Shown here: in pieces, positions 11,501 to 24,679 of the stretch
Layout: every line of letters starts with the position of its first letter
How positions within the stretch are numbered: the first letter of the stretch is position 1
Source of the DNA: a virus
Taxonomy: Duplodnaviria > Heunggongvirae > Uroviricota > Caudoviricetes
Reading direction: 5' to 3' (one strand)
IMG/VR virus record: IMGVR_UViG_3300031088_000793
DNA length: 29,815 nt
Notes under the pieces: model-generated
Told to the model about the DNA's origin: nothing
Databases searched by the model: none
The model's input: only the letters and a program-made list of their open reading frames with translations
Translations under genes and position numbers: made by a program

Positions 11501-13983
11501 AGGCTTGTGACCTTGCCATCGTAGTCCGTACTCTTGACCAGGATTCCGTCAGTGTCGTACTCGCTGGTAGAGATGTTTCCTGCGGGATTGAAGGTTCGAG
11601 TTAGCAGATTCTGATCGTTGTACTCAAATCTGTAGATCGATCTCCCAGGAGTGGCAAGATAGGTCAGGTTACCTCTGCTGTCGTGGCGATAGCTGATCGA
11701 AGCTCCACTGGGAGTGGTCTCCGAGGTGAGCTCTCCATCCGAAGAGTAGCTGTAGCGGTAGATCCTTTCATCAGCCGTGTCCTTGGCGAAGACACGCTGA
11801 GCGAGTCTCCCCGAGCTATCGTAGCTCTCAACGGTTTTGCTACCATCGGGGAGCACGATCTGAGTCACAGAATTGTAGAGATCGTTGCCGTAGCTAAAGC
11901 TCGTCAGACCGCCTCGAGGATCCTTCTGGGAGCTCACTCGTCCGTCTGAGCCATAGGTTGTTTCGTAGACGCCGCCGTTGGGATGGGTAATGGTCCTGAT
12001 GCGGTTGTCCGGGTAGTAGCTGTAGCTCTTCTTCGCGGCAATCCTACTGTCCGCCACTTCAGTGAGATTGCCATCCGTGTAGCTGTAGCCGACTGTGTGA
12101 GAACCGTCGGTGATAGAGCCTATAAGGTCGCCTGCCCAGCTGATGGTGATCGTGCTGGAACCGTTGCTCACTGTCGAAAGCTTGCCAGCAGAGTAGCCGA
12201 GAGTAGCTTCGTTGCCGATACGATCCACGAGCTTTGTAAGCCTACCGGTGCCATCAAAGATGAACTGCTCCTGGTCCCGGGTCCTCGTGAAGGTGTAGCT
12301 ACCTGAAGCGTCTTCAGACAGCGTGGCCCTAAAGCCATTAGGCGCGGTGAAAGTTCGCTGACCATCTTCGCTGGCGGAGAAGCTCACAGTGGAACCATTT
12401 TCCTGATTCACGGTGAGCCGGGTAGAATCGCTCAGACTGGAAGCATTGCCGCTGATTGCCATGCCGTAGCTAAAGGTGGTGCCGTGGCCGAACGGGCCGC
12501 TCTTGGTGTTTCGAAGGCTAGAGTAGGAGCGACCAAAGTTCAGGTCCATAGTGCCCTCTGCCTGAAGATCGGAAGAGTTCTCGAAGAGCTCACCGTTGAG
12601 ACCGTTGATCGGATCCCCGTGGCACTGTTGCTGACAATCGGCTGTTGAGGGATTGGAACCATTCTGGAAGCGGCTGGTTCTGAAGAAATCTGCGGGAGAA
12701 GCTGGGGGTGCATCTTCTGCATCCGCGCTGTCACTGGATGCCATAACCCCTTGGAGCTGAGAGGCATACTCGACCGTCTGATCACGCTTTGCAATGATCC
12801 CCTTGACCCGTGTGACATCGGGACTAGTTAGGCAGCTGATAACGGGCTGGGGAGGTCCGTGGTCTGGCGACTTATCACTACAGACAATTTTGCCTGTATC
12901 AACATCGGAAAGATAAAGCGACTGAATCTCAGAGATCCAGACATTCCTGCTGGTCTTAAAGTTGGCAGTTATGTACTGAGTGTTATTGGGCTGCGGGGTT
13001 TTGATCGTTTCGCCGATTGTGATGGTCCACTTGCGGGGAGGTATGGTGACCACCTCGCTGACGGCCTGAATGTCCTCAAGTTGATCCGGAGTTGTAGCGT
13101 TGCTCTCGCGCTTTGCTATATAGATCTGGTATCTGAGGGTCTCTGTCTCGCCGATGTTTCTAATCAGCCTACTTTCGCTCAATGAGCCCCACCCATTGCC
13201 CTGGCCAGCGATGGGCATGTACTCCATCGCACTGGTGTTCAGATTGTATAGGTAAACCCCATAGTAGGGGTAGAAGTCTGGAATGACAAATGTGCTCACA
13301 TTGAGTGGCTGGTTTGTTTCATAGCCAATCACCGCGACATCTTCAGAGTATGTCCTGATGTGATCAGGATAATGGCTAGTGGTTATTTCCCACTTACCCC
13401 TTTCGATGGTGATCTCATTGCTCTCTGCGATTATTTCCGGGATCTGATCAACGGGAATAGCTGAAGCGCCGTAGCCCACTCCAGACCGGGCTACCACTAC
13501 TTTGAAATTCTTGGATGACTCCTTGGTAAAGCGCGGTATCTTCCAGATATGTTGAACTCCTCCCCCGATGTAGTAGGTCTTTTGAGCGGTGACATCTACA
13601 AAGTAAAAGTAGTAGTCAGCGCTTCTACCCTGAGCGATGTCTGCGGGGAGGTTTCCCGGATCCACGGTAATCGTAGGGGTATAATCATCCGTGTAGAAAA
13701 TGGAAGCGCTTGAGCTAATCGAGAATGAGTACTGTGACTGTTGTGCACTTCTGGCCTGGCTGGGAGCCGAATCCGTCACAGCTTCAGATTCTACGCTCTC
13801 AACGGGTTCTGCCACTTCTGTGGGCGCGGCTTCAGGAGTAGGAACCACCGACGCTGAAGGCTCACTACTCGGTGCAGCACTGGCCGATGTGGGCGTGGCG
13901 ACTACGAAGCCAGCCAAAAGAGAAGCTGCTGCAACCATACCGACTGATCGCAGCAGCTTCGAAGATAGAGTCTGAATTTTCAA
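8596..13983 (-). CDS. secreted Rhs/YD-repeat protein (1795 aa)
   Basis: TTG start with GGGGAG RBS; Sec signal peptide (ASA-A); DUF6531-like DPINGLNGELF...FGRSYSS; many Y-x-Y-D-x-x-G repeats; core end YNLRARWYDP...PYSYGSGNPLSFTDPLG; about 205-aa C-terminal tip. Confidence 0.95.
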   Translation of the reverse strand: MKIQTLSSKLLRSVGMVAAASLLAGFVVATPTSASAAPSSEPSASVVPTPEAAPTEVAEPVESVESEAVTDSAPSQARSAQQSQYSFSISSSASIFYTDDYTPTITVDPGNLPADIAQGRSADYYFYFVDVTAQKTYYIGGGVQHIWKIPRFTKESSKNFKVVVARSGVGYGASAIPVDQIPEIIAESNEITIERGKWEITTSHYPDHIRTYSEDVAVIGYETNQPLNVSTFVIPDFYPYYGVYLYNLNTSAMEYMPIAGQGNGWGSLSESRLIRNIGETETLRYQIYIAKRESNATTPDQLEDIQAVSEVVTIPPRKWTITIGETIKTPQPNNTQYITANFKTSRNVWISEIQSLYLSDVDTGKIVCSDKSPDHGPPQPVISCLTSPDVTRVKGIIAKRDQTVEYASQLQGVMASSDSADAEDAPPASPADFFRTSRFQNGSNPSTADCQQQCHGDPINGLNGELFENSSDLQAEGTMDLNFGRSYSSLRNTKSGPFGHGTTFSYGMAISGNASSLSDSTRLTVNQENGSTVSFSASEDGQRTFTAPNGFRATLSEDASGSYTFTRTRDQEQFIFDGTGRLTKLVDRIGNEATLGYSAGKLSTVSNGSSTITISWAGDLIGSITDGSHTVGYSYTDGNLTEVADSRIAAKKSYSYYPDNRIRTITHPNGGVYETTYGSDGRVSSQKDPRGGLTSFSYGNDLYNSVTQIVLPDGSKTVESYDSSGRLAQRVFAKDTADERIYRYSYSSDGELTSETTPSGASISYRHDSRGNLTYLATPGRSIYRFEYNDQNLLTRTFNPAGNISTSEYDTDGILVKSTDYDGKVTSLEHNSEGVLTSRTDPNGQKSGLSSSYSYGSSELLQSTTDTRGKTTSYSYDSARNPVKITDPLGNETEFSYQRNNPELISGIRYENGSTEEFSYDGAGRLTESVAKDGTKIQYSYDSMDNPLTVTTSHGTTSYEYDANQRLISTTNPKDSKTSYEYNGTGLLKKVTLPNGKSTLKEYSTDGLLSADVDAAGNRTLYGYGLDGRLEKITDPSGGVTRLVYDKLGNITQKVTPSGIWTNYSYSPAGKLKSMDEKSLRKTAYSYDDSGNLTRTTYADGTTELRSYDSEGNLKSVTDREGELTAYGYDGLNRATKEIRADQSEVAYSYDSSSNLISTDYGSGQVYENSYNLKDQLLESTTPEGLTTEYSYSPSGDLTSRGSPQDKVSYGYNGYGEVTSIDYPSGTTVDYSYDGLGDIQKVKLGADTLADYSYDDRYNRTGVSYGNGTTETTEFDALNRAKKIMVSNGSGELYGRSLDFDADSRISKAVASFGGTVTQDKSYQYSDFGTIRSSKDELSNVAQSHGYDLLNNLQSIGANSFSYDGSSSRLSQATVDGVTQSYSYDGRGNRTGLSSSTGTASYSWSKSNTLKSVELSPTKTVSYGYDAAGLLSSRSVSGDPTEHFSWDTVSGSAPELIEDSDFDYIYGADSTPFLQIDKSTGEKTYLYGDERGSVVLATAEDGSALWNRSYDEYGSKFTQTTAPGVTGAAQTRFGFAGEYLDPDTGLYNLRARWYDPKSASFLSVDPALLITGEPYSYGSGNPLSFTDPLGLWSMKDTLTTAAAAVDGLLPVPLASDLANAIQPGSVDNCSALYKNVKTVSTVGSFLVPGLGPIKAASMAAKVAVGATKILKGRGAEVLTRELGSKAANYSLQLINRAAKKGIESMVSAASKKYLGFDILGIVPSIRSVSKNGSSYLKYGVHPAIWTPLYNETSRAILDQRYGRNEQYTIDGLIENGPNNPSFENRIYQAKLAGDI

Positions 13984-14179: not shown

Positions 14180-15187
14180 CTACTCTAGGCGCAGATGGTC
14201 GATTCCGCGAGGAACGATGCCATCGATGGCTTCCAGCGCCTTAGACAGCCTTCCCTCGACCGTGGAGTCCGTGAGCTCGAGGAAGGGGAGATCATGGGCC
14301 TCGAGCACACTCTTCCAGTAATCGTCCGACTGTTCCCGGCGATCTCCGCCGTAGCGGATAGGATCTACCTCGAAGGGGATGTCGCTGTTGAGGATCAGGT
14401 AGAGGTCAGCACGGAGCTCATCCGCATCCTCCCTCAGCCCTGCTGGCACGGTCTCAGGGGACCAGAACTCCCAGTAGCCCAGGGTCGTGTAGAGGTCAGT
14501 GTCGAGGATCACGGCCTGAGGCGTGGGATCCATGGCCTGGAGACCCTGCTGCAGAGCCTTCTGTCCCCGCCAGATCCCCCGCATCTTCTGTTCATCGAGC
14601 TCCCCGGGATTGCTCTCCAGGTAGCCCCGAGCGTACTCGGGAACAGCGATGGTGTTCTTCAGCGCGTCCCGGAGCGCTCGAGCCAGAGTGCTCTTGCCGG
14701 TGCACTCAGCTCCGAAGATCACGATGCGGCGCTGGATCAGCCTCTGAAACTCGGGGATCACCCAGCCCCAGTTGTCAGCGAGGTTCTCCCGGATGCCCGT
14801 GGCCTTGGTGTAGCGGATCGTCCGCTCCATGTCGTAGGGGAAGAACTCGCCTCCGAGGTAGCCCGCGATCTCAGTTCCCCAGGGCTCGCTCACTACGAGG
14901 AAGTCTCCGACTTCGAAGCCCTTGGATCGAAGATGCTCCGCCCACTGGAGATTGGTCTCACCCACAGAGTCATCCCAGGCGGGGATCTCCAGAGGTAACA
15001 CCTCGACGCTGGGATCTGCAGCGAAGCGATCCCGGAGAGACTGCAGCCGCTCCTGCCGATAGGGTTCACCCTCTCGGAGCACATGGACGACCCTAGTGGA
15101 GTCGCCGAGCGCAGCTGCGAAGTTGATCAGATCCGCGTGGCCCAGAGTGGGCGGCATAGCGGAGAGTAGCACAAAGCTCGTTGCCAT
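14180..15187 (-). CDS. nadR: NadR-like bifunctional nucleotidyltransferase / ribosylnicotinamide-kinase-like (AAA_28) protein, without the HTH
   Basis: N-terminal PPTLGH ([H/T]xGH nucleotidyltransferase motif); C-terminal IFGAECTGKSTL Walker A, VPEYAR, ILDTD and DPIRYG, as in the NadR kinase domain. Confidence 0.8.
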   Translation of the reverse strand: MATSFVLLSAMPPTLGHADLINFAAALGDSTRVVHVLREGEPYRQERLQSLRDRFAADPSVEVLPLEIPAWDDSVGETNLQWAEHLRSKGFEVGDFLVVSEPWGTEIAGYLGGEFFPYDMERTIRYTKATGIRENLADNWGWVIPEFQRLIQRRIVIFGAECTGKSTLARALRDALKNTIAVPEYARGYLESNPGELDEQKMRGIWRGQKALQQGLQAMDPTPQAVILDTDLYTTLGYWEFWSPETVPAGLREDADELRADLYLILNSDIPFEVDPIRYGGDRREQSDDYWKSVLEAHDLPFLELTDSTVEGRLSKALEAIDGIVPRGIDHLRLE

Positions 15188-15249
15188 CAGACAGTCTTCT
15201 TTCATATCCTTGTTGTTTGAGTACGGCCGATCAGGAACGCCGTGGTTAG

Positions 15250-15258
15250 ATACTATCA
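15250..15258 (-). promoter_or_regulatory. extended -10 promoter (TGA-TAGTAT)
   Basis: TGn-TANNNT between a hairpin and the nadR-like gene. Confidence 0.55.
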
Positions 15259-15292
15259 ACTTCCCCGCAGCCCTGGACCGAAGACCGCAGCG

Positions 15293-15331
15293 GAAAGGCG
15301 CTCCAAGCCCGTCGGACCTGGAGCGCCTTTC
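15293..15331 (-). terminator. hairpin after the GH16 gene
   Basis: GAAAGGCGCTCCA / TGGAGCGCCTTTC, 13-bp perfect stem. Confidence 0.65.
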
Positions 15332-15363
15332 GCTATGGAACTGCTAGGCAGAGCTGGCTATGC

Positions 15364-16476
15364 TCAGGGAGCGTAGCTGTAGGAGGTAGCCCAGTCCACC
15401 TCGATGTTGCCCTTGGTGCTGGGGTCGGGGAAGCGAGCCTGCCAGGTCTCAGTCTCGGCCTGGAGGGTCCAGCGGAAGTCGGTGCTGGGCGACTTGGTGG
15501 TGGAGTTCACCAGCTCACCGTCCCAGAACCACTTGACGCCCGAAGGAGTCCACTCAGTGGTCGCCACATGCCAGCCAGTGGCGTCGGTCTTGGAGAAGAT
15601 CTCCTTGGCGGGCTCGAAGTTCATGCCGGAGCTCGTCAGAGTGCCGGGCACAGCGAGGCCGGGGCGCATGTGGCCGTCGAGGTTACCCTCGGGCCAGTCG
15701 ATCTCACCCTCATTCCAGTTGTCGCTGCTGGGCCACTGCATGAAGGCGATCTTGTAGCCGACCATGGTGTCAGCGCGGAAGCGGATCGAGTAGCGACCGT
15801 AGGTCTGACCGTTGTAGTCATTGAGCACAGGTGTTGCCACGAGGGGCTTGCCGTTCTCAGTGTGGAGGTTGTAGTTGAGCTTGCCGTTGGCCACGCTCAG
15901 AACCCTGTCGGGAGCGTAGGTGCCGTTGCCCGAGGTGTCCTTGAAGCCATCGTAGCCTCGGAGCGACTCTCCGTAGACATTGCCGACCTGGCCCAGAGCG
16001 GCGGGCTTCGTGAAGTCCTCCTTGAAGTTCTGCTTCCAGCCCTTCAGGTCCCCCACGGGCATGGTGGTGCTCACCGGAGTGGTCTCAGCCTTCACGGTGA
16101 ACTGCTTCTTGGTGCCCTCCCACCAGCTGTTCTGGTACTGAACGCAGGGGAAGTAGGTGTAGGTGCCGGGAGCGAAGTCGGCGGTGGCCTTGTAGGCGGT
16201 GCCCGTGCGCTTGATTGGAGTCTTGGTGAGCTTCGGGTAGTCGAGGTTGTTCTGCCAGGCGTCTCGAACGCAGACGCTGTAGTTCTGCGAGGTGACCTGG
16301 ATGGCCGACTTCACATTGGCGGCCACGGTGACCTTCGATCCAGAGACCGAGGCACTGGAGGAGACGGTGGAGAAGAGAGAGGCGGCGCTCGCCGGGAGCG
16401 CGCCGGTGGTCAGGATCAGGGGGAGTGCGGCCACAGATGCCAGGGTAAGCAGCAGCCTTTTCTTTGAAGTTTTCAC
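15364..16476 (-). CDS. secreted glycoside hydrolase family 16 protein with an N-terminal beta-rich domain
   Basis: GTG start with AAGGA RBS; signal peptide (ASA-A); catalytic E-I-D-x-x-E motif (GEIDWPEG); YGRYSIRFRAD, WHVATTEWTP and WFWDG. Confidence 0.88.
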   Translation of the reverse strand: MKTSKKRLLLTLASVAALPLILTTGALPASAASLFSTVSSSASVSGSKVTVAANVKSAIQVTSQNYSVCVRDAWQNNLDYPKLTKTPIKRTGTAYKATADFAPGTYTYFPCVQYQNSWWEGTKKQFTVKAETTPVSTTMPVGDLKGWKQNFKEDFTKPAALGQVGNVYGESLRGYDGFKDTSGNGTYAPDRVLSVANGKLNYNLHTENGKPLVATPVLNDYNGQTYGRYSIRFRADTMVGYKIAFMQWPSSDNWNEGEIDWPEGNLDGHMRPGLAVPGTLTSSGMNFEPAKEIFSKTDATGWHVATTEWTPSGVKWFWDGELVNSTTKSPSTDFRWTLQAETETWQARFPDPSTKGNIEVDWATSYSYAP

Positions 16477-16504
16477 GGGTTTCCTTCGATTCGGGTGTTT
16501 GACC

Positions 16505-16533
16505 ACACTACGCGGCAAATGCGATAGCGTCAA
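16505..16533 (-). promoter_or_regulatory. SigA-type promoter TTGACG-N17-TAGTGT
   Basis: Near-consensus -35, a 17-nt spacer and a TANNNT -10, upstream of the GH16 gene. Confidence 0.7.
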
Positions 16534-16705
16534 AAGGAGCCACTTTGCATATGAAAACTGCCACGCTGAGCCGCGGGCCATATCGAATGCTCAGAGAACT
16601 GTGCTCACTTCCTAGGCCTGGTTCTAACCCAGAGCGCTATGCTGCCATCCGCACTGTAGAGCGCTCATCCCAGAGTGTCATCACACCGGCCCACTCTCCG
16701 CCGAC

Positions 16706-17392
16706 TCAGCTCCGCCAGTAGGCAGGCACCGCGACCGTGGGCAGCTTCCGCTTCATGGCCAGGTCGAGGAGCTTAGGCCGGAGATCCAGCGCAGCGATGA
16801 GCCCCGTGGTCCTAGTGAAGTCGAGCTGGTAGCTCTTGCCACTGGGAGCCACGAAGTCAACCGGAGGGAGCGTGCTCATGTTCTCCACATAGCGCCGGAC
16901 CTGATCGGCAGCTCCAGCCGCAGCTACCCGCTTGATCTCCACGGCGATGGGCGCTCCGTCCGCGCCCACCGCCAGGATGTCAACGGCTCCAGCACCTGTC
17001 TGAAACTCGCGCTGAAGAGTGACGATCCCCGATCCCAGAGCCTCAGGATGATCGAAGAGCCACTGCTGAAGCTGAGCCTCAGTGCCGTCCACCTTGAGCC
17101 CCGGCTCGTTGCTCCTGTCGAGGAGCTGCTGCTCGAAGGATCCGTGGATCCGGTGGATGGTGATCTGCAGGAGCTCGTGGCGAGCGTCGAAGCTCCAGAC
17201 CTCCTCCCCATCGCCGTTGACCGTGACGAGCTGAGAGGCCGTCTTCATGTAGTTCAGCGGCTTGTTGCTGTTGTCATTGTGGATTGAGACTGAGCCATCG
17301 CTCTTGATCAGGATAGCCCTCGTGCCTCGCTCCAGGGTGCTGTCACCTCTTCCCGAGTAGACAGCCGAGCAGTCTGCTATGATGACTCGCAT
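16706..17392 (-). CDS. nucS: mismatch-specific endonuclease NucS/EndoMS homolog
   Basis: MRVIIADCSAVYSGR...IKSDGSVSIH...KPLNYM N-terminus; EAQLQ, REFQT and VDIL...VEIKR PD-(D/E)xK motif; actinobacterial type. Confidence 0.92.
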   Translation of the reverse strand: MRVIIADCSAVYSGRGDSTLERGTRAILIKSDGSVSIHNDNSNKPLNYMKTASQLVTVNGDGEEVWSFDARHELLQITIHRIHGSFEQQLLDRSNEPGLKVDGTEAQLQQWLFDHPEALGSGIVTLQREFQTGAGAVDILAVGADGAPIAVEIKRVAAAGAADQVRRYVENMSTLPPVDFVAPSGKSYQLDFTRTTGLIAALDLRPKLLDLAMKRKLPTVAVPAYWRS

Positions 17393-17487
17393 GGGTTCCT
17401 GTTCCGGTAGAGCTCAAGGGCTTAGGATCAGCCTCAGCGCTAGGGCCGAGCTTCGCTGTTGATGAGTCTACCCTAACGAGAAAGGGC

Positions 17488-17521
17488 CGGAGAGGAGGGG
17501 CTCTGACCTCCCTTCTCTCCG
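17488..17521. terminator. imperfect purine/pyrimidine hairpin
   Basis: CGGAGAGGAGGGG pairs with the 17509-17521 pyrimidine tract (13 bp, 2 G-T), 20 nt after the stop at 17541. Confidence 0.4.
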
Positions 17522-17540
17522 ACCCAGCTTGGGATCTCCC

Positions 17541-20015
17541 CTAGTCCCTGGGGACCACCTGACGGCGATCCAGAGGCGGGAAGAAGGTCTCTGCAGGACC
17601 CCGAGTGAACTTGCCGGGGTCACCGGAGCTCAGCGCACCCTCGGCCTGAGTGATCCTCCTGAAGAAGTCCGAGGGAAGGATCTCGAAGCCCCAGACCGTC
17701 TCGTAGATTCCTCGGAGCTCGCTGAGGGTGAAGCCACCAGCGGGCAGGAAGTCGAAGACGATGGGGGAGTACTCGAGCTTGGCACGGATTCGCTCCAGAG
17801 CATCCCGGAGGAGCACAGCGTGGTCGAAGGCAAGCTCCAGCTCTCCAAAGAGAGCCTCATCCACGGGGACGAAGCGAGCCTTGGCAGCATCGTCACCTGC
17901 GAGCACTGCTGGAGCCTCGGGGAGGAGCGCAGCGTAGAGCGTCGAGATGATGTAGCCCCGGCGATCCCTGCCCGGGTAGCCGTAGGTCCGGACCTGCTCG
18001 ATGTAGCCACCCTCTGAGAGGTTGACTCCGGTCTCTTCCTCGAGCTCTCGGAGCGCAGCACTGTCGATGGACTCTCCTGTGTCCACGAAGCCACCGGGGA
18101 GCGCCCACTTGCCGAGCTCGGGGTGATTACCCCGCTCGATGAGTAGAACCTGAAGCTTCCCGTCGAGGATGGTGAAGATGCTGAGATCCACCGTGGCTCC
18201 GACCGAGGGCCAGCGAGACTGGTCGTAGTGCTTGAGGAACTCTTCCTCGGTGAGTGCCGCCGTCCTATAGCTCTGCACAGCAGCGCTGAGCTCCTCACTT
18301 CGCTCCGCGGGGAGACCTTCCACGCTCCCCTCGTAGCTCTTCCCAAGGAGAAGCTCCTGAGCGAGCCTCTGCAGCTCAGAGCTGACAGCGCTTCGGAAGC
18401 CCACTGTCAGGGCATTCTTCATGACCTCGCCACTGATGAGCTTGCCTAGATCTGTGACCAGGGGAGGGGTTGGGTTTCTCCCGACGACATCCTCGATGAT
18501 GCTCTTGAGCTCATCGATGTCATCCTCGCCGAGGGGAATCGCTCGCTCACCGCGCTCTTCGAGGAGGAGCTCATAGCGCTCTGCGGGCGTCAGCGAAGCG
18601 AGCTTCTCATCCCTCGTGGGCTCGGGGTCCAGGGGATAGCTCTCAGCGAGCCTCCTAAGCTGAGCCTGATGGGCGTTGCCTTCCCGGCGGAGCTCCTCGT
18701 CGCTGGTGTGGGGAGCAAAGTTCGGCCAGGGCCGGTCGAGGAGGAGCACTGAGATCAGGTTGGCCACATCGTCGGCGGCCTCGATGGTCATCCACCAGTC
18801 AGGGCCCAGAGCTCGGGACTTTCGGATCAGGGGATCGGCTTCGGCCACGAGGTCCTGGAGGAGGATCTCGGAGATCTCAGCGTAGATGATTCCCTCTGCG
18901 ATGAGCGCCAGGGTAGCGATCTCCCGCTCGTCGGCGGGCTCACCGTCGTAGTCGTCGAGACCTCGAAGCTCATCTCCGAGGATCTGGTGGACATGGCCCG
19001 CGTGGAGGCCTGAGTGACCGTGGTCTCCGTGAACTTCCTCGACGGTGAAGTCCTCGATGGCCTCTGACTCGTCCTCTGCGGAGATCTCAGCGACTCCCCA
19101 CTCCCCCTCGTCGGATGTATCCGTGGGCTCATCCTCGGGGCTTAGATCGTCAGCTACGGTCCAGAGCTCCGGGTGCGCCTCCAGCTCAGCGTGGGTAGCG
19201 ATGACCTCGGGGTCGTTGACGACGAGCTCCTCAACATCCGTGAGCACTCGAGGTGCGTAGTCCTCGGGAAACTCCTCCTCGAGCTCTACGCTGAGGTCGC
19301 GCTCAGCGCTGTGGACCCGGCCCTCGATGAGCTCTCCGAGCTTCTGGACGAAGCTCTCCCGCTCGGCCTCGGTGATCGGGTAGTCGTCCTCTGCGGGCTC
19401 ACCGAGGAGCTCGCTCAGAGCCGAAGGGCCGAGGCTGTCGAGGTAGAAGTTGGTGGCAGCTTCCACCACTGCCGGATCTGACCAGCTGTAGCTCCGAGCG
19501 TCCTGGGCGAAGTCGGGGACGCTGCTGCCCACGAGCTCTGCGAGCTCATCGAGCTCTACCGAGGCGCCGATCTTATCCTCGATGGCCGACTGGAAGGACT
19601 CGAGCTCTTCCCGGCAGAGAGGCTGGGGATCCTCGCCATCGAGGTCACCGATTGCCATCTGCTCTTCGAGGGTCTCCTTGAGGCCGTAGATCGCAGCAGC
19701 CTCGGTGAGCTCAAAGTCTTCGATGTCGGGGTCCGCATCCTCATCCCGGGCTCCGAGGAGAAGGTCCCGGAGGATTTCGTCGAGCTTCAAGTAGACAGTG
19801 AAGGAGGCCCAGGCGTCCTTGGAGCCCCAGCCTGAGTACTCAAGTTCCTCGCTGTGATTCCGAACGAGGTCCAGAACTGGCTCCGCGAGCTCCAGGATAT
19901 CCCGGTAGAGCTCAGGGACTACTTCGGTTCCGAGGATGAGCTCCGAGAGCTGTCGGAGCTCTACTTCTTCTTGCTCAGAGAGCACGAGTGCTCCCTGCTG
20001 TTCTCCGTCTGTCAT
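17541..20015 (-). CDS. fusion: ~620-aa acidic helical region + NrtR-like Nudix (ADP-ribose pyrophosphatase) + eroded winged-HTH
   Basis: ATG at 20015 with AAGGA RBS. C-terminal TVDLSIF, VLLIER, WALPGGFV, Nudix box GESIDSAALRELEEETG, PGRD, LAFDH and FTLSELRGIYE match NrtR. The N-terminal part is very Glu/Asp-rich. Confidence 0.85.
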   Translation of the reverse strand: MTDGEQQGALVLSEQEEVELRQLSELILGTEVVPELYRDILELAEPVLDLVRNHSEELEYSGWGSKDAWASFTVYLKLDEILRDLLLGARDEDADPDIEDFELTEAAAIYGLKETLEEQMAIGDLDGEDPQPLCREELESFQSAIEDKIGASVELDELAELVGSSVPDFAQDARSYSWSDPAVVEAATNFYLDSLGPSALSELLGEPAEDDYPITEAERESFVQKLGELIEGRVHSAERDLSVELEEEFPEDYAPRVLTDVEELVVNDPEVIATHAELEAHPELWTVADDLSPEDEPTDTSDEGEWGVAEISAEDESEAIEDFTVEEVHGDHGHSGLHAGHVHQILGDELRGLDDYDGEPADEREIATLALIAEGIIYAEISEILLQDLVAEADPLIRKSRALGPDWWMTIEAADDVANLISVLLLDRPWPNFAPHTSDEELRREGNAHQAQLRRLAESYPLDPEPTRDEKLASLTPAERYELLLEERGERAIPLGEDDIDELKSIIEDVVGRNPTPPLVTDLGKLISGEVMKNALTVGFRSAVSSELQRLAQELLLGKSYEGSVEGLPAERSEELSAAVQSYRTAALTEEEFLKHYDQSRWPSVGATVDLSIFTILDGKLQVLLIERGNHPELGKWALPGGFVDTGESIDSAALRELEEETGVNLSEGGYIEQVRTYGYPGRDRRGYIISTLYAALLPEAPAVLAGDDAAKARFVPVDEALFGELELAFDHAVLLRDALERIRAKLEYSPIVFDFLPAGGFTLSELRGIYETVWGFEILPSDFFRRITQAEGALSSGDPGKFTRGPAETFFPPLDRRQVVPRD

Positions 20016-20065
20016 CTGCGGTTCCTTCCGCTCGGTGCTATGCTGGGTATGTTCTGGGGAAGCGC

Positions 20066-20266
20066 TCAAAAGGGTGGCCAGCTCCCTGCGCTTCGAAGCT
20101 TCCGATGCCACTCGCTGTGGACCTTCCTGCTCACAACTGAGCCTCCACAGCTCATGCAGGCGTAGATTTTCACAGGCTCTTCCGTCTTCGGGTTGATCTG
20201 AGGCACTGCCCGGTAGTGAGGGCTCGACTCATCCCAAGGGGATTCCGTCTCTTCTTCTGTAGCCAT
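20066..20266 (-). CDS. small CxxC...HxxWH zinc-finger-like protein
   Basis: Strong AAGGAGG RBS; CMSCGGSVVSRKVHSEWH. Confidence 0.8.
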   Translation of the reverse strand: MATEEETESPWDESSPHYRAVPQINPKTEEPVKIYACMSCGGSVVSRKVHSEWHRKLRSAGSWPPF

Positions 20267-20295
20267 CGGTGCCTCCTTCCTGTGGTTCTACGGTA

Positions 20296-20514
20296 CTAAC
20301 TATCAGCGCTGTCGCGCTCTGAGGCTCGATACTCACGAACAACTCGAAGGGACCTCAGCCCCACGATGAGGATGAGTAGCCCCGCAGCGTCGAGGATCAC
20401 AGCCAGGGCTATGATCAGCCCCCTCGGCTCTTGGGCAGAGGTCAGTGAGCCGACGGCCGGCCCGGCGAGCATGAGGAGGAAGCCCAGCGCTATGGCTAGG
20501 AGCGGTCTAAGCAT
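20296..20514 (-). CDS. 72-aa two-TM membrane protein
   Basis: GGAGG RBS; two hydrophobic helices and a charged tail. Confidence 0.8.
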   Translation of the reverse strand: MLRPLLAIALGFLLMLAGPAVGSLTSAQEPRGLIIALAVILDAAGLLILIVGLRSLRVVREYRASERDSADS

Positions 20515-20532
20515 GATGCCTCCAGAATTTCG

Positions 20533-20541
20533 ATGCTATCA
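20533..20541 (-). promoter_or_regulatory. extended -10 promoter (TGA-TAGCAT)
   Basis: TGn-TANNNT upstream of the RBS of 20296-20514. Confidence 0.55.
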
Positions 20542-20552
20542 CGGATCTCAGC

Positions 20553-20771
20553 TCAGCGGCGCGCTTTTATGCGGTCTCGGAGAGCCCTGTAGACTCCGCC
20601 GACGCCGAAGATAAGGAGTACGATGGCCGTCACTCGGATCGGGAAGGACAGTGCGCCGAGGATCCAGCTGTAGTTCTGACTGTCTGCGGGGTTGTTCACC
20701 ACGAGCACCAGATAGCACGCGAGGGCCAGAACTACGATCCCCGCAGCGAGCTGAATCAGCGACTTCCTCAT
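20553..20771 (-). CDS. 72-aa two-TM membrane protein
   Basis: Two hydrophobic helices and a basic tail; AGGA RBS. Confidence 0.8.
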   Translation of the reverse strand: MRKSLIQLAAGIVVLALACYLVLVVNNPADSQNYSWILGALSFPIRVTAIVLLIFGVGGVYRALRDRIKARR

Positions 20772-20786
20772 GGAGTTCCTATCGGC

Positions 20787-21005
20787 TCAGTTCGCAGCCT
20801 CGAGCCGAGCCTCTCGAGCATTGACGGCAAGAAGCGTCCGGTCGATGCCCACAGCTGAGATCACTGCGCCGCCGATCACGGTGAAGAGAGCCACCACTGG
20901 GCTCTCGACAGAGCCGAAGGTTCCGGCGGGTAGGCCGTGGACCAGGGGTCCGAGGAGGAAGGTCAGCAGGAAGCCGCTGATCATCACGGTGAGGGGAATA
21001 CGCAT
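20787..21005 (-). CDS. 72-aa two-TM membrane protein
   Basis: Two hydrophobic helices; AAGGA RBS. Confidence 0.8.
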   Translation of the reverse strand: MRIPLTVMISGFLLTFLLGPLVHGLPAGTFGSVESPVVALFTVIGGAVISAVGIDRTLLAVNAREARLEAAN

Positions 21006-21032
21006 AGCTCAGTCCTTAGTCTCGATGGTGAC

Positions 21033-21647
21033 TCAAGGATACGCTATCGACACTCCCTCTCGGGGGAAGTCCACCGTGAAGGCCTTAGCGACTAGCTCTG
21101 CGCTGATCCCCTCTGTGTAGTTTAGGAGGACCTGAGTCCTGAAGCCCTCCCGGGCTGCATCGATGGCAGTTGAGGCCACACAGTAGTCTGCCGCCAGCCC
21201 CACCACATCCACGGAGCCCACGCCAGCTTCCCGCAGGATGTCAGCGAGCTTCACTCCGTAGTCGTTGCGGCCCATGAAGCCGCTGTAGGCGTCCTCGTAC
21301 TGGCCCTTGAGCACGATCTCCTGGTTCACATTGAGCTTGCTCAGCGCCTCTGTGACTCCGGGGAGGATCTCAGCACCGGGAGTGTCGGCCACGCAGTGCC
21401 GGGGCCAGCTATCGACGAAGTTGGGAGTCTCGGAGAAGTGCTTTCCTGGATCCACATGCCAGTCCTGAGTGGTGACGATGAGATCGTAGGGATGGGGCTC
21501 GACGAGGAGCTCAGTGGCGATGCGCTCAGCGAGGGCTCGGCCACCCTCAACAGCGAGGCTGCCGCCCTCCACGAAGTCTCCCTGGACATCCACGATGATC
21601 AGTGCCTTGCTCAGATCGGCCATGGGCTCTACGCTGTGCTTCCACAT
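21033..21647 (-). CDS. pncA: nicotinamidase/pyrazinamidase
   Basis: IIVDVQGDF (catalytic Asp), TQDWH, HFS, WPRHC, Lys in VLKG, and GLAADYCV (catalytic Cys). ATG at 21647 lies 1 nt after the upstream stop, with an AAGGAAG RBS; alternative start 21623. Confidence 0.93.
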   Translation of the reverse strand: MWKHSVEPMADLSKALIIVDVQGDFVEGGSLAVEGGRALAERIATELLVEPHPYDLIVTTQDWHVDPGKHFSETPNFVDSWPRHCVADTPGAEILPGVTEALSKLNVNQEIVLKGQYEDAYSGFMGRNDYGVKLADILREAGVGSVDVVGLAADYCVASTAIDAAREGFRTQVLLNYTEGISAELVAKAFTVDFPREGVSIAYP

Positions 21648-21648
21648 G

Positions 21649-22467
21649 TCAGTTAGCTTCCTTCTCGGTGGTGATGGTGCGCTCTGAGGTTCGACTATTC
21701 GCCTCGGGGAAGTGGATCCACTCTTCCTCTTCCTCATCGCTCTCTGCGACCCGGATGAACCAGGGAGCGGTGGCTGAGAGGAGCGCTTCGAGCTCTTCCC
21801 GGGAGATCAGCCTCTGATCCTTTCCGCCCTCGACGCCCCGATAGCGGATCTGCTCGTAGCCCTCGTTGCTGACGAACCAGCCACCGATGGAGAGCGGTGC
21901 GCCTGTGTCCCGATTGTCCGGGTGGTCCGGAGTGTTGTAGAAGCTGTTGGTGATGTCCCAGTTCAGGGTCAGCCCCGGAACCTTCGGAGGAGTGCGGCCC
22001 ATGCGCTTGTCGAAGTTCAGGTCGCTCCAGTTCGCCGTGTGCTTCATTGTCCAGCCGCTCCTGGCACCCTCGAGGAAGAGAGGCCAGTGTCTGAGGAGCT
22101 CCTCCTGGACGGTGGGCTCTTCCTGAGCCGCCCAGGCGCCGAAGTGCTCATTGAGCTCGGGGAGCGGCTCTCGGAGCCAGCCGCGAACCTGCTCCAGATT
22201 CCAGTATGTTCCCATGGGAACGCCGGAGTGCTGCTCAGGGATGTAGGCCCGGGGCTCATCCTCGCCGCGCTGCAGGGTGAGCACCACGGAGCTCAGCTCC
22301 TCAGAGTTGGCCCGGCGCTTGGTGAGCCAGATTGCCCAGTCGATGGGGCTGACGAAGTCTGAGCCCAGGTAGTAGAACCCCAGCTCGACCTCGCTGAGCC
22401 CCAGGGAGATCCCCTCCTTGGCGAGCTCGAGGAAGGCCTCGGGGATGTCGTTCTCGATGGTTCTCAC
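21649..22467 (-). CDS. Trp-rich hypothetical protein (272 aa)
   Basis: GTGA overlap with the upstream gene; no motif recognised. Confidence 0.85.
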   Translation of the reverse strand: MRTIENDIPEAFLELAKEGISLGLSEVELGFYYLGSDFVSPIDWAIWLTKRRANSEELSSVVLTLQRGEDEPRAYIPEQHSGVPMGTYWNLEQVRGWLREPLPELNEHFGAWAAQEEPTVQEELLRHWPLFLEGARSGWTMKHTANWSDLNFDKRMGRTPPKVPGLTLNWDITNSFYNTPDHPDNRDTGAPLSIGGWFVSNEGYEQIRYRGVEGGKDQRLISREELEALLSATAPWFIRVAESDEEEEEWIHFPEANSRTSERTITTEKEAN

Positions 22468-22739
22468 TGGCTCTTGCTCTCTGTCGGTTCGGTGGTCGCA
22501 GCGAATAGTGCGGCCCTGACCCCATCGATGAGCATGTCATCGGAATCTAGTCCGTCTAGCTCGGCATGGTCGATGATGCTCCGAGCTGCGAGGGGCGTAC
22601 TGAGGTCTACCTTTGAACAGCTCACCTCCCGGATGATCAGGTAGTCGAAGGGTGGCTCGTAAGCCTCGGGAGTGTCAATGCCGATCTCTGTCTCCAGCTC
22701 GACGGTGACCTCCAGGGTGATCTTTGCGAAGCGGCTCAC
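22464..22739 (-). CDS. small acidic hypothetical protein (91 aa)
   Basis: GTG start with AAAGGA RBS. Confidence 0.8.
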   Translation of the reverse strand: MSRFAKITLEVTVELETEIGIDTPEAYEPPFDYLIIREVSCSKVDLSTPLAARSIIDHAELDGLDSDDMLIDGVRAALFAATTEPTESKSQ

Positions 22740-22757
22740 TGTGCTTTTCCTTTCAGC

Positions 22758-23048
22758 CTACGGGAGGATGGTCTCGGGCTCACCCTGGATACGATCTGCC
22801 GTGGCCTGCTGGGCCTCGGTGAGATCCTGGGCTCGAGCGCCGCTCGTGAGCGCCCACCAGAGCGTCCCATCCATGGGACAGTCGCCACAGGTCCGGGGCG
22901 AGATGATGCCGAAGTGACCCATCCGTGGAGGATAGTCCCAGCCAGAGTCGAAGGCCTCGCTGGGAAGGAGCACCTCGTCCTTGCCGCAGATCTCGCAGAT
23001 GTGGCGGAGGGCCCTCTCCCCGGAGGTTCGGTCGGGTGCGATGCTCAC
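22758..23048 (-). CDS. zinc-ribbon-like protein (HICxxCG...GWDYPP...CxxC...WW)
   Basis: CEIC and CGDC pairs around GWDYPPRMG. GTG start at 23048 with GAGGA RBS, overlapping the upstream TAG by 1 nt. Confidence 0.75.
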   Translation of the reverse strand: MSIAPDRTSGERALRHICEICGKDEVLLPSEAFDSGWDYPPRMGHFGIISPRTCGDCPMDGTLWWALTSGARAQDLTEAQQATADRIQGEPETILP

Positions 23049-23188
23049 TAGCCAGCCATCCTCGACGCGTAGATCGAGACACCGGCGAGCACATCCGCGG
23101 ACTTCTCCGTGGTGGTGGGATCGTACTGAGCCTTCCGGGCGAGCCTGTCGAGCTCGCGCCATTCAGCTGCTGTCAGCCTTTCAGCCAT
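23048..23188 (-). CDS. 46-aa microprotein MAERLTAAEWRELDRLARKAQYDPTTTEKSADVLAGVSIYASRMAG (absent from the ORF track)
   Basis: Strong GAGGAG RBS before the ATG at 23188; the TAG overlaps the next GTG; fills the gap after pncB. Confidence 0.65.
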   Translation of the reverse strand: MAERLTAAEWRELDRLARKAQYDPTTTEKSADVLAGVSIYASRMAG

Positions 23189-23228
23189 GGGATTCTCCTC
23201 TGTCAGTGATGCGGTCTAAGATTGAGGC

Positions 23229-24605
23229 TCAGGCGCTGTAGCCCTGAGCCTCAAGGAAGGTATCGCCAGCGACCACCGAGAGCGCCTCAGCGGGAAGCAT
23301 CTCGATCTGACGCTGAAGCGTCTCCCGGCTGCGCTCGAGACCGGAGCGGAAGCTGAGGCCCTTATCGCCCTGGTAGAGCACTCGCTGCGGGTCGGCCATC
23401 CGGGACTGAGCGAACTCCTCGATGAGCTCAGGCTCACCTGCTGCCCGGTCGAAGAGGGTCTCAGCAGTGAGCTTGCCCTCCTGGTCGAAGAAGCGACGGA
23501 CGGTCTTCCTGCTTCCCAGGGACTTCTTGCCAGCCGCACGCTTGGCCACGGGGACCATGGTGCCATCGGCAGCCTCGCGCTCGACGAGCTTGTAGACCAT
23601 GCCGCAGGTCGGGTGACCCGAGCCGGTGGCCACTCGCGTGCCCGCTCCAGCACCGTCCACGGGAGTGCCGCGCTCGACCATGTTGCTGAGGCTGTACTCG
23701 TCGATGTCACTGGAGAGGATGATCCGGGTCGAGGTGGCACCCAGGGAGTCCAGGAGCTGGCGGGCCTTCACCGTCTCCTCGTGGAGGTCACCGGAGTCGA
23801 TGCGGATGGCTCCGAGCTCGGTACCTGCCACCTCGACGGCGTTGCGGATGCCCTGCTCGATGTCGTAGGTGTCCACGAGGAGCGTGGTACCAGCGCCGAG
23901 GCTGTTGACCTGCGCCTGGAAGGCATCGCGCTCGTCCTCGAAGGACAGGGTGAAGGCGTGGGCTGCGGTGCCAGTGACGGGGATCTCGTAGCGGTAGGCG
24001 GCCTCGATGTTGGAGGTGGCGGCGAAGCCAGCGATGTAGGCAGCGCGAGCGACGGCCACGGCCGAGCTCTCGTGAGTCCGGCGGGAGCCCATCTCGATGA
24101 GAGGGAACTTGCCAGCAGCTGCCTGCACCATGCGAGAGGCTGCACCGGCGATGGCAGAGTCGTGGTTGTAGATCGAGAGAAGCACGGTCTCGAGGAGCAC
24201 GCACTCGAGGAAGCTTCCCTCGACTCGAAGGATGGGGCTGTAGGGGAAGTAGAGCGAGCCCTCCTCGTAGCCGGTCAGGGTGCCGGTGAAGCGGAAGTCG
24301 GCGAGGCGGTCGATGAGCTCATCGCTGATGGCGGGGTGCTGTGCGAGGTAGTTGAGCTGGTACTCGCCGAAGTGGAAGTTCTCCACGGCATCCAGCGCTC
24401 GGTCGACACCCGCGACGACGCCGTAGCGGCGGCCCGTGGGGAGCTTCCGAGCGAAGAGCTCGAAGGTCGTGCGCTGGTCGGCAGTTCCGGCCTGGAGGGC
24501 GGCGGAGGCCATGGTCATCTCGTAGAAGTCCGTCCTGAAGGCGGAGCTCTGGAGATCCTCGAGCTCGCTAAAGGCGTACTCGGCATTGGGGTCAGATATG
24601 CTCAT
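23229..24605 (-). CDS. pncB: nicotinate phosphoribosyltransferase
   Basis: TDFYEMTM, FELFAR, EMGSRRTH, GTAAHAF (phospho-His motif), LLVDTYD, IRIDSGDL and MVYKLVE; actinobacterial PncB type. Confidence 0.93.
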   Translation of the reverse strand: MSISDPNAEYAFSELEDLQSSAFRTDFYEMTMASAALQAGTADQRTTFELFARKLPTGRRYGVVAGVDRALDAVENFHFGEYQLNYLAQHPAISDELIDRLADFRFTGTLTGYEEGSLYFPYSPILRVEGSFLECVLLETVLLSIYNHDSAIAGAASRMVQAAAGKFPLIEMGSRRTHESSAVAVARAAYIAGFAATSNIEAAYRYEIPVTGTAAHAFTLSFEDERDAFQAQVNSLGAGTTLLVDTYDIEQGIRNAVEVAGTELGAIRIDSGDLHEETVKARQLLDSLGATSTRIILSSDIDEYSLSNMVERGTPVDGAGAGTRVATGSGHPTCGMVYKLVEREAADGTMVPVAKRAAGKKSLGSRKTVRRFFDQEGKLTAETLFDRAAGEPELIEEFAQSRMADPQRVLYQGDKGLSFRSGLERSRETLQRQIEMLPAEALSVVAGDTFLEAQGYSA

Positions 24606-24611
24606 GGTTCC

Positions 24612-24617
24612 ATCCTA
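24612..24617 (-). promoter_or_regulatory. -10 box TAGGAT (leaderless pncB)
   Basis: TANNNT exactly 6 nt before the ATG at 24605; no RBS. Confidence 0.55.
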
Positions 24618-24640
24618 CGCCATAGCTGCGGAAAACACAA

Positions 24641-24679
24641 TCGGGCGGGATCCACCGTTTCCAGTGGATGCCCGCCCGA
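24641..24679 (-). terminator. intergenic hairpin
   Basis: TCGGGCGGGATCCAC / GTGGATGCCCGCCCGA, 15-bp stem with one bulge. Confidence 0.6.

Follow-up and report, generated by a model that had tools for sequence, protein, structure and literature searches.

An NAD+ salvage island on a probable giant phage or phage-like element, apparently built from a captured pncB-pncA-nrtR operon and a NARP3-type cassette without pnuC

Two probable salvage branches on one island

We analysed the DNA of the IMG/VR virus record IMGVR_UViG_3300031088_000793 (29,815 nucleotides; this whole stretch is referred to as the window) and found an island with four genes related to nicotinamide adenine dinucleotide (NAD+) between positions 14180 and 24605: pncB, pncA, a gene encoding an enlarged NrtR-like Nudix protein and a nadR-like gene. 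The initial annotation of the window had already placed four NAD-related genes there, on the minus strand, and its assignments hold upon family, motif and PDB comparisons, with the catalytic motifs intact. We consider it probable, though far from certain, that the island provides two parallel salvage branches that depend on the trunk of the host pathway and that serve the upkeep of NAD+ during infection. The first part, present in all relatives, would go back to a single capture of a bacterial pncB-pncA-nrtR operon, followed by expansion: PncA would deamidate nicotinamide, PncB would make nicotinate mononucleotide (NaMN), the last steps would be carried out by NadD and NadE of the host, where these are essential, and the NrtR-like protein would bind ADP-ribose and probably cleave it to AMP and ribose-5-phosphate. 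The second, variable part would be a NARP3-type pnuC-nadR cassette that lacks pnuC in the window genome, the remnant being a putatively bifunctional NadR-like enzyme (from nicotinamide riboside, NR, via nicotinamide mononucleotide, NMN, to NAD+) downstream of the former promoter and leader of pnuC. Both parts would keep NAD+ available in infection and would be most useful as host NADases release nicotinamide and ADP-ribose.

The window lies inside a metagenomic contig of 673,309 bp (ENA ERZ27247443, k141_645502), and its gene order is reproduced in an independent 23-kb Logan assembly. The sequence that could be read comprised the window and 4.8 kb beyond it (about 35 kb; L001, 34.6 kb), and this is the scope of all local absences that are reported below. 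Window features are given in window coordinates and are all on the minus strand.

A captured operon for probable nicotinamide recycling

The first gene of the unit, pncB (23229..24605), encodes a nicotinate phosphoribosyltransferase of 458 residues that scores above two NCBIfam equivalog cut-offs (NF006698, 564 bits vs 531; TIGR01513, 412 vs 297), that matches the phage Nampt-type family phrog_448 at only 6e-13 and that is 50-62% identical to PncB of Actinomycetota. On this family assignment, the enzyme is predicted to use nicotinate and not nicotinamide or ADP-ribose pyrophosphate. The PncB equivalog is the sole phosphoribosyltransferase of the window, which contains neither a Pribosyltran domain nor another gene of the NAPRTase family. 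The nicotinamidase gene pncA (21033..21647; 204 residues) was identified by alignment to PncA of M. tuberculosis (3pl1, E 5e-49), in which the Asp/Lys/Cys triad and the Asp-His-His-His metal site, residues with established catalytic and metal-binding roles in PncA, are all matched; its score with NCBIfam PRK11609 (2.6e-23) remains under the cut-off.

The same gene order, i.e. pncB, small open reading frames (ORFs), an orphan of around 275 residues, pncA, small ORFs, the NrtR-like fusion and a NucS gene, is kept in the related contigs L003 (346 kb), L005 (120 kb), L006 (111 kb) and L092 (50 kb). Synteny of pncB, pncA and the fusion gene was seen in five related metagenomic contigs of 50-346 kb in all, with protein identities of 40-73%, and for L003-L006 the identity to the window proteins is 71-73% for PncB, 60-61% for PncA, 66-68% for the NrtR part of the fusion and 40-42% for its extension. 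Because the order is shared by related contigs, the clustering of pncB, pncA and the Nudix gene is not due to chance.

Chromosomal counterparts with the matching order pncB, pncA, nrtR were recovered from seven Actinomycetota genomes (Nostocoides, a Frankiales metagenome-assembled genome (MAG), four Nocardioides and one unclassified Actinomycetota MAG), the nrtR products of which have 227-309 residues and are 41-45% identical to the C-terminal part of the fusion. In a PncB tree obtained by quick search, the four phage-type copies fall into a single clade (SH-aLRT 100), and its neighbours in the tree are the PncBs of exactly the operon-bearing bacteria (support 96). The shared order, the PncB tree and the conservation in relatives together identify the pncB-pncA-nrtR part as a host operon that was captured once, that is under selection and that has expanded.

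The region directly ahead of pncB (24603..24677) reads as a hairpin, the terminator of the upstream gene, followed by a -10-like TAGGAT (24612-24617) that ends six bases ahead of the pncB ATG. This block of terminator hairpin, -10 element and ATG is kept in L003 and L006 and suggests that the start of pncB is leaderless. The ten genes that follow pncB are separated by gaps of at most 50 bases, and the 11 packed genes from pncB to the NrtR-like gene probably form a single, leaderless transcription unit. Four orphans fill the tightly packed stretch between pncB and pncA (21649..23188): proteins of 46 residues (23048-23188), 96 residues with two CxxC pairs (22758-23048), 91 residues (22464-22739) and 272 residues (21649-22467). 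Between pncA and the NrtR-like gene lie three tandem genes (20787-21005, 20553-20771 and 20296-20514) for paralogue-like membrane proteins of 72 residues with two hydrophobic helices each, the slots of which are also occupied in L092 (79, 76 and 72 residues), and a gene for a CxxC protein of 66 residues (20066-20266). No family match was found for the small genes at 20066..21005. That the three membrane proteins represent a split PnuC was considered and rejected, given that they have no similarity to PnuC. In L005 a gene for an HNH-domain protein (L005:6280-7434; 384 residues) is inserted right behind pncB, within the otherwise conserved unit.

The gene of the 272-residue orphan ends one base ahead of pncA, and its product is 47-50% identical in relatives. 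The family comprises 47 cluster representatives, none of which has a Pfam match. The AlphaFold model is of high quality (predicted local distance difference test, pLDDT, 90.3) and shows an alpha/beta protein, for which fold searches yielded no convincing relative: the best E in a Foldseek search of the PDB was 0.02, the best Z with VIA was 5.8 (chorismate-utilising enzymes), AFDB returned only unnamed clusters, and the Atlas features (0.81) were at noise level. In two phage-like contigs, NADAR-domain genes (L008:5696-6157; L009:1904-2425) occur two to three genes downstream of distant relatives of the orphan, a neighbourhood that we take as a possible lead towards ADP-ribose biology and not as a function assignment. 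One of these two contigs also carries a D5-type primase and one a Fic gene.

An enlarged NrtR-like protein

The gene that had been described in the initial annotation as an ADP-ribose Nudix (17541..20015) encodes what is, judged by its domains, an NrtR homologue (Nudix domain plus winged helix), and the conserved winged-helix tail argues against the role of plain ribose-5-phosphate feeder that had been assigned to it. The protein has 824 residues as called (856 in a longer ORF that starts from a GTG further upstream) and matches Pfam NUDIX (1e-21) and the NCBIfam model for NrtR-type repressors NF050029 (4e-42), the latter with 144 bits and under the cut-off of 400. It consists of an acidic, helical and phage-specific extension (residues 1 to around 590), the Nudix domain (around 612-736) and the winged helix (around 750-815). 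The Nudix box (18024-18092) is complete (GX5EX7REUXEEXGU) and the last 240 residues are homologous to NrtR, the best PDB match being NrtR of S. oneidensis (3gz5, E 4e-34, residues 4-212 of 240). The same structure and AraR (5bs6) were matched at the fold level with Z 6.7, on a fusion model of low confidence (pLDDT 64 for the whole protein).

We recovered 18 full-length relatives of the fusion (46-67% identical), all metagenomic and on contigs of at most 346 kb. The Nudix box, the FxRR helix motif and the wing are retained in every one of them, with box and FxRR invariant. As the window copy differs only by a six-residue deletion before the wing, its DNA-binding part has not been lost. In the same relatives the extension of some 590 residues is conserved in blocks over its full length; it is modelled as two helical domains with a disordered acidic linker in between, and searches against Pfam, PHROG, NCBIfam, Atlas and known folds gave no match. 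Its acidity was rejected as a clue to DNA mimicry, being a weak one where all proteins of the locus have isoelectric points of 4-5.

Among NrtR proteins, ADP-ribose pyrophosphatase activity goes together with an intact Nudix signature, and NrtR comes off DNA when ADP-ribose is present (PMC2330246). By analogy, ADP-ribose is most likely a ligand of the fusion and probably a substrate as well, with AMP and ribose-5-phosphate as products. Ahead of every chromosomal copy of the operon we found a 21-bp palindrome, TTATAGTCA-N3-TGACTATAA, that contains the NrtR core GT-N7-AC; this site occurs neither in the window nor in the related module loci. The DNA-reading helix of the fusion is unlike its counterpart in the donor NrtRs. 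A generic scan for palindromes at the pncB and nadR-like promoters revealed none.

A NadR-like cassette that has lost its transporter gene

The nadR-like gene (14180..15187; alternative ATG at 15205) encodes a protein of 335 residues that is annotated by its family matches as NMN adenylyltransferase and ribosylnicotinamide kinase (Pfam AAA_28, 1.5e-23; TIGR01526, 8e-29; phrog_3462, 'nicotinamide-nucleotide adenylyltransferase', 1.8e-40). It is a divergent member of the family, as its score with TIGR01526 (101 bits) is far under the cut-off (341). The motifs PPTxGH, ATxIR (xATxIR), Walker A GAExxGKxT and DTD are invariant among 16 NadR-like relatives, the helix-turn-helix (HTH) domain is absent, so that the protein begins at the adenylyltransferase motif, and the PDB matches are the NadR entries 8x7f and 1lw7 and an adenylyltransferase of 357 residues (9x6f). 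The nearest cultured relatives are found in Microbacterium phages (40% identity), with PnuC nearby.

Orthologues that are 55-89% identical lie directly behind, and overlap with, a PnuC gene in L090, L091 and L092 (50, 765 and 828 kb, L092 being the contig of 50 kb), and on the 765-kb contig a NARP1-type pair of Pribosyltran and NAPRTase genes is located just upstream of pnuC-nadR. At the module locus of L003, L005 and L006 the gene is missing. On this distribution, the nadR-like gene is a separate variable cassette of the NARP3 type. In L092, the closest relative, pnuC-nadR occupies the corresponding locus: 703 bp that include pnuC correspond to 16 bp in the window, where the upstream terminator, promoter and leader have been retained with 78% DNA identity to the region upstream of pnuC in L092. 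By this comparison, pnuC has been cleanly deleted in the window lineage. The arrangement of leader and NadR without PnuC is also found in L093 (NadR-like 92% identical), and tblastn recovered no PnuC from the window or from L001.

The former pnuC control region, now fused to the nadR-like gene (15188..15329), contains, as deduced from the comparison with L092, the terminator (15293-15329), a -10 element TAGTAT (15250-15255), a leader hairpin (15223-15243) and an A-rich tract with the Shine-Dalgarno sequence (15207-15218). This 5' leader of phage pnuC and nadR-like genes is conserved (window 15207-15255; L090:9256-9308; L091:9262-9312; L092:8848-8898; and L093-L099) and is composed of a 5-bp stem, an invariant 11-nt loop (GUUCCUGAUCG), the A-rich tract and the Shine-Dalgarno sequence. 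Over 12 instances the stem shows covariation: the outer pair is paired in all 12 (three pair types) and the inner pair in 11 (two types), while the position beyond the outer pair is paired in none. One instance lies ahead of a gene for a PnuC that is just 25% identical to the other PnuCs. The UCCU of the loop could pair with the Shine-Dalgarno sequence. A comparison with Rfam yielded no family at E <= 10, and we regard the leader as a candidate for a new cis-regulatory RNA, which possibly senses NAD+ precursors.

An operator of the chromosomal NrtR type was observed on the pnuC-nadR promoter of L091 (L091:9211-9231; matrix score 26.0, with training sites at 17-34), together with a weaker match in L090 (L090:9219-9239; score 12.9) and, by eye, sites in L096, L098 and L099. 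Given the presence of an NrtR operator on the promoter, the related NARP3-type cassettes may switch on with ADP-ribose via an NrtR of host or phage. The window lineage has lost this site.

The element and the neighbouring genes

Almost all long ORFs of the window are on the minus strand, around two-thirds of the ORFs are without a family match and a few match PHROGs of unknown function; no tRNAs and no housekeeping genes occur in the window. The relatives carry, as is typical of large phages, a T4-type RNA ligase and NARP1- and NARP3-like cassettes. The one-strand layout, the majority of orphans, the PHROG-only matches, the lack of tRNAs and housekeeping genes, the phage-type cassettes in relatives and the phage homologues of the NadR-like protein agree with a phage or phage-like element of very large size, the host of which was probably a member of the Actinomycetota; the term phage is used on the basis of this context. 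A mobile, non-chromosomal setting, as the initial annotation had it, is thereby supported. Its description of the surroundings as phage-style fits the orphan ORFs and the PHROG matches; no capsid, portal or terminase gene was seen in the 35 kb read. A scan of IMG/VR with PncB and the NadR-like protein returned no relative, nor did megablast of the region against GenBank phages return a match.

Downstream of the fusion gene, and adjoining it in all related loci, is a gene for a NucS-like endonuclease (16706..17392; Pfam NucS_N and NucS_C), which at 76-79% identity in L003-L006 is the best conserved protein of the neighbourhood and has no evident link with the NAD+ genes. It is followed by a gene for a GH16-domain protein (15364..16476; 370 residues as called; Pfam Glyco_hydro_16, 2.7e-8) that is also found in L003 and L005. 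Beyond the nadR-like gene lies a gene for an RHS-repeat protein of 1795 residues (8596-13983; DUF6531 and RHS) with a lower G+C content (0.51-0.56) than its surroundings (around 0.61). As it is present at the matching locus in L005 and L006 and absent from L003 and L092, it is a variable insert. The C-terminal 299 residues have no counterpart among toxin families, and behind the RHS gene there is no small immunity-like gene; the possibility that this C-terminus is an NADase toxin was rejected, since no family was matched even at E = 1. A weak match to Ms_IGR-8 (13917-13960) was likewise dismissed, being merely the terminator hairpin of the RHS gene.

Pathway logic and alternative explanations

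Characterised NadR-type adenylyltransferases act on NMN and NR (PMC13464706; PMC2330246) and not on NaMN, so that the deamidated branch would end at NaMN and would require NadD and NadE. In mycobacteria, nicotinamide is salvaged via PncA and PncB, NadD and NadE are indispensable, and NadD prefers NaMN around 1000-fold (PMC3944813). This indispensability and substrate preference make a reliance of the element on NadD and NadE of the host plausible. The notion of the initial annotation that the set recycles both NADase products is supported as an idea, with PncA and PncB intact and the Nudix box invariant in the family.

Various observations weigh against the reading of two host-dependent branches. 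No ORF in the window or in the 4.8 kb that extend beyond it encodes NadD or NadE, and the remaining 640 kb or so of the contig may hold them; Prs and Nampt, like NadD, NadE and PnuC, may lie on the rest of the 673-kb contig, beyond the 35 kb read. The NadR homologue of M. tuberculosis is inactive (PMC3944813) and a NadR-like enzyme without transporter gave no rescue in the NARP3 study (PMC13464706), and for these reasons the lone NadR-like gene may add little. Scanning the window with the donor-operator matrix gave no site with a score of at least 8, where 95% of the shuffled sequences peak at 13.9 or lower; with the donor-type operator absent from the window, regulation of the unit by the NrtR-like protein is unsupported, though an operator that has diverged or a target further away may exist. 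The PncB tree comes from a quick search, its sampling was skewed by the search patterns, and the stem branch of the phage copies is long. Finally, no capsid, portal or terminase gene was seen in the 35 kb read.

The pathway that was proposed in the initial annotation is linear: the NadR-like protein would act after PncA and PncB as NaMN adenylyltransferase, and the Nudix domain would mainly supply ribose-5-phosphate for phosphoribosyl pyrophosphate. The location of the four genes on one strand within 10.4 kb and the intact Nudix box are in line with it, yet the characterised NadR enzymes and the phage enzyme Bas30_86 act on NR and NMN, the orthologues are coupled to the NR transporter PnuC, the nadR-like gene comes with a terminator, promoter and leader of its own, three related module loci do not contain it, and the product nicotinate adenine dinucleotide would still require NadE, which was not seen in the 35 kb. 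We consider such a linear route very improbable. More credit, though still as a minority view, is due to general auxiliary metabolism, in which the island would supply NAD+ for the element's own consumers and for an infection cycle of long duration, irrespective of host NADases. Salvage or Preiss-Handler genes are carried by widespread jumbo phages, which have many NAD+-consuming enzymes as well (PMC11662467), the module copies a housekeeping operon of the host, and no recognisable defence or anti-defence gene is found beside it. Against this stand the similarly annotated NARP1, NARP2 and NARP3 sets, which counter NAD+ depletion of the SIR2, DSR and Thoeris types, and the presence in the unit of an ADP-ribose-binding protein, which fits the sensing of an NADase product; upkeep of NAD+ against NADases and auxiliary metabolism are not mutually exclusive.

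The element may also be something other than a phage, i.e. a megaplasmid, another extrachromosomal element or an unusual actinobacterial chromosome, with ordinary cellular NAD+ salvage. The lack of virion and packaging genes in the 35 kb, the typically cellular nature of RHS, Glf, GH16 and NucS, and the size of the related contigs (up to 830 kb, beyond the 716 kb of the largest phage genome cited in PMC11662467) would agree with this, whereas around two-thirds of the ORFs have no family, the genes are almost all on the same strand, housekeeping genes and tRNAs are absent, relatives contain a T4-type RNA ligase and NARP1-/NARP3-like cassettes, the closest cultured NadR-like homologues are from Microbacterium phages, and the phage PncB is on a long separate branch within no bacterial genus. 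On balance we judge a non-phage origin quite unlikely. Slightly less doubtful, and still unlikely, is that the NrtR-like protein is the key effector, which would take over NrtR promoters of the host, or bind or cleave ADP-ribose-derived immune signals, with the extension as the part that meets a new partner or target. The conservation of the extension of 590 residues over its full length in 18 relatives, a DNA-reading helix unlike that of donor NrtRs in combination with the absence of the donor-type operator at its own locus, and the donor-type operators on pnuC-nadR promoters of related elements point in this direction, and a recent preprint (bioRxiv 10.64898/2026.05.28.727677) reports phage enzymes that break down ADP-ribose-based signals and supply NAD+ synthesis. 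The extension, however, has no recognisable domain or fold, and the whole-protein model is poor. A joint reading would make the island an ADP-ribose-triggered counter-defence device, in which the NrtR-like protein would sense and perhaps destroy ADP-ribose (or derived immune signals) while its extension acts on a new partner, the 272-residue protein would be a new NAD+- or ADP-ribose-processing enzyme, and the leader would be an RNA that senses NAD+ precursors; we give this combination a low probability.

With two parallel, host-dependent branches as the preferred reading, huge phages of Actinomycetota, the hosts of which recycle nicotinamide only by PncA and PncB, appear to copy the ADP-ribose-linked operon of the host and to combine it with a NARP3-type cassette. 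The island raises the question whether protection against NADases can come from a deamidated route that is only partly encoded and draws on NadD and NadE of the host, and also what the extension of 590 residues gives to an ADP-ribose sensor, and whether the orphan protein and the leader hairpin are new players in the control of NAD+.

Comparison with known systems

NAD+ depletion is among the commonest anti-phage strategies, and to our knowledge only amidated routes (NARP1, NARP2) and the riboside route (NARP3) for rebuilding NAD+ have been tested so far. A literature search retrieved no test of a phage PncA/PncB set against NADase defences. The closest known relatives of the first part of the island are the chromosomal NrtR-linked salvage I operons (Rodionov et al. 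2008, PMC2330246), which have the three genes, their order and their orientation in common with the element, with identities of 50-58% for PncB, 41-53% for PncA and 41-45% for NrtR; most donor-type NrtRs likewise have an intact Nudix box. Unlike these operons, the copy of the element has eight extra small genes and an NrtR extension of 590 residues, and it lacks the 21-bp operator.

Among cultured jumbo phages, Bacillus phage G (NC_023719, cluster gp273-gp283 at 200-207 kb) has an NrtR-like Nudix protein (gp273), a PncA/isochorismatase (gp275) and a nicotinate phosphoribosyltransferase (gp277) in adjoining positions and also NadD (gp281) and NAD synthetase (gp283), all within 7 kb. In contrast to the element as read, its deamidated route is complete, its Nudix protein is of normal length and its gene order is reversed; the identities are just 27-38% and indicate an independent acquisition. 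In a survey of 2024 (Microbiome), complete salvage or Preiss-Handler sets were described for 174 jumbo phages (PMC11662467). These phages are metagenomic, their pncB is clustered with other NAD+ genes and a phage pncA is mentioned; the example pncB-nadD-nadE, from gut phages, is complete, unlike the set of the element. NrtR fusions, inserted orphans and an actinobacterial operon ancestry are not in that survey.

The second part of the island compares best with NARP3, formed by PnuC and an HTH-less NadR-like enzyme (Bas30_87/86), which imports nicotinamide riboside, makes NAD+ and defeats Sir2-HerA and DSR1 (Sci Adv 2026, PMC13464706). The NadR-like protein of the element likewise has both active sites and no HTH, and its orthologues in giant relatives overlap the end of pnuC. 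It differs in that the transporter gene has been deleted in the window genome and that the host is probably actinobacterial and not enterobacterial, and the NadR-like sequence resembles 9x6f, the likely Bas30_86 structure, only remotely (E 2.6e-10). In an uncultured phage of 735 kb (LR756501.1, 423199-424986) a PncA-like gene is located directly beside a NadR-like gene, another pairing of a deamidase with an enzyme of the NadR type. NARP1 (Adps and Namat) and NARP2 (Nampt and Nmnat) rebuild NAD+ from nicotinamide and ADP-ribose by phage-borne enzymes (bioRxiv 10.1101/2024.02.11.579819), as is here proposed for the element, but Adps, Namat and Nampt are not found in the window, PncB is by its score a nicotinate enzyme, and the deamidated route is not complete as read. 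The related 765-kb element, with its Pribosyltran and NAPRTase pair beside pnuC-nadR, is NARP1-like in this respect.

The 'third route' of the initial annotation is not supported: NARP3 already combines PnuC with a NadR-like enzyme, and Preiss-Handler sets are on record for jumbo phages (PMC11662467) and phage G. The branches of the island are of kinds already reported in large phages and do not form a single new linear pathway. The ancestry in an actinobacterial operon, the NrtR fusion, the orphans conserved within the unit and the loss of pnuC seem to be undescribed.

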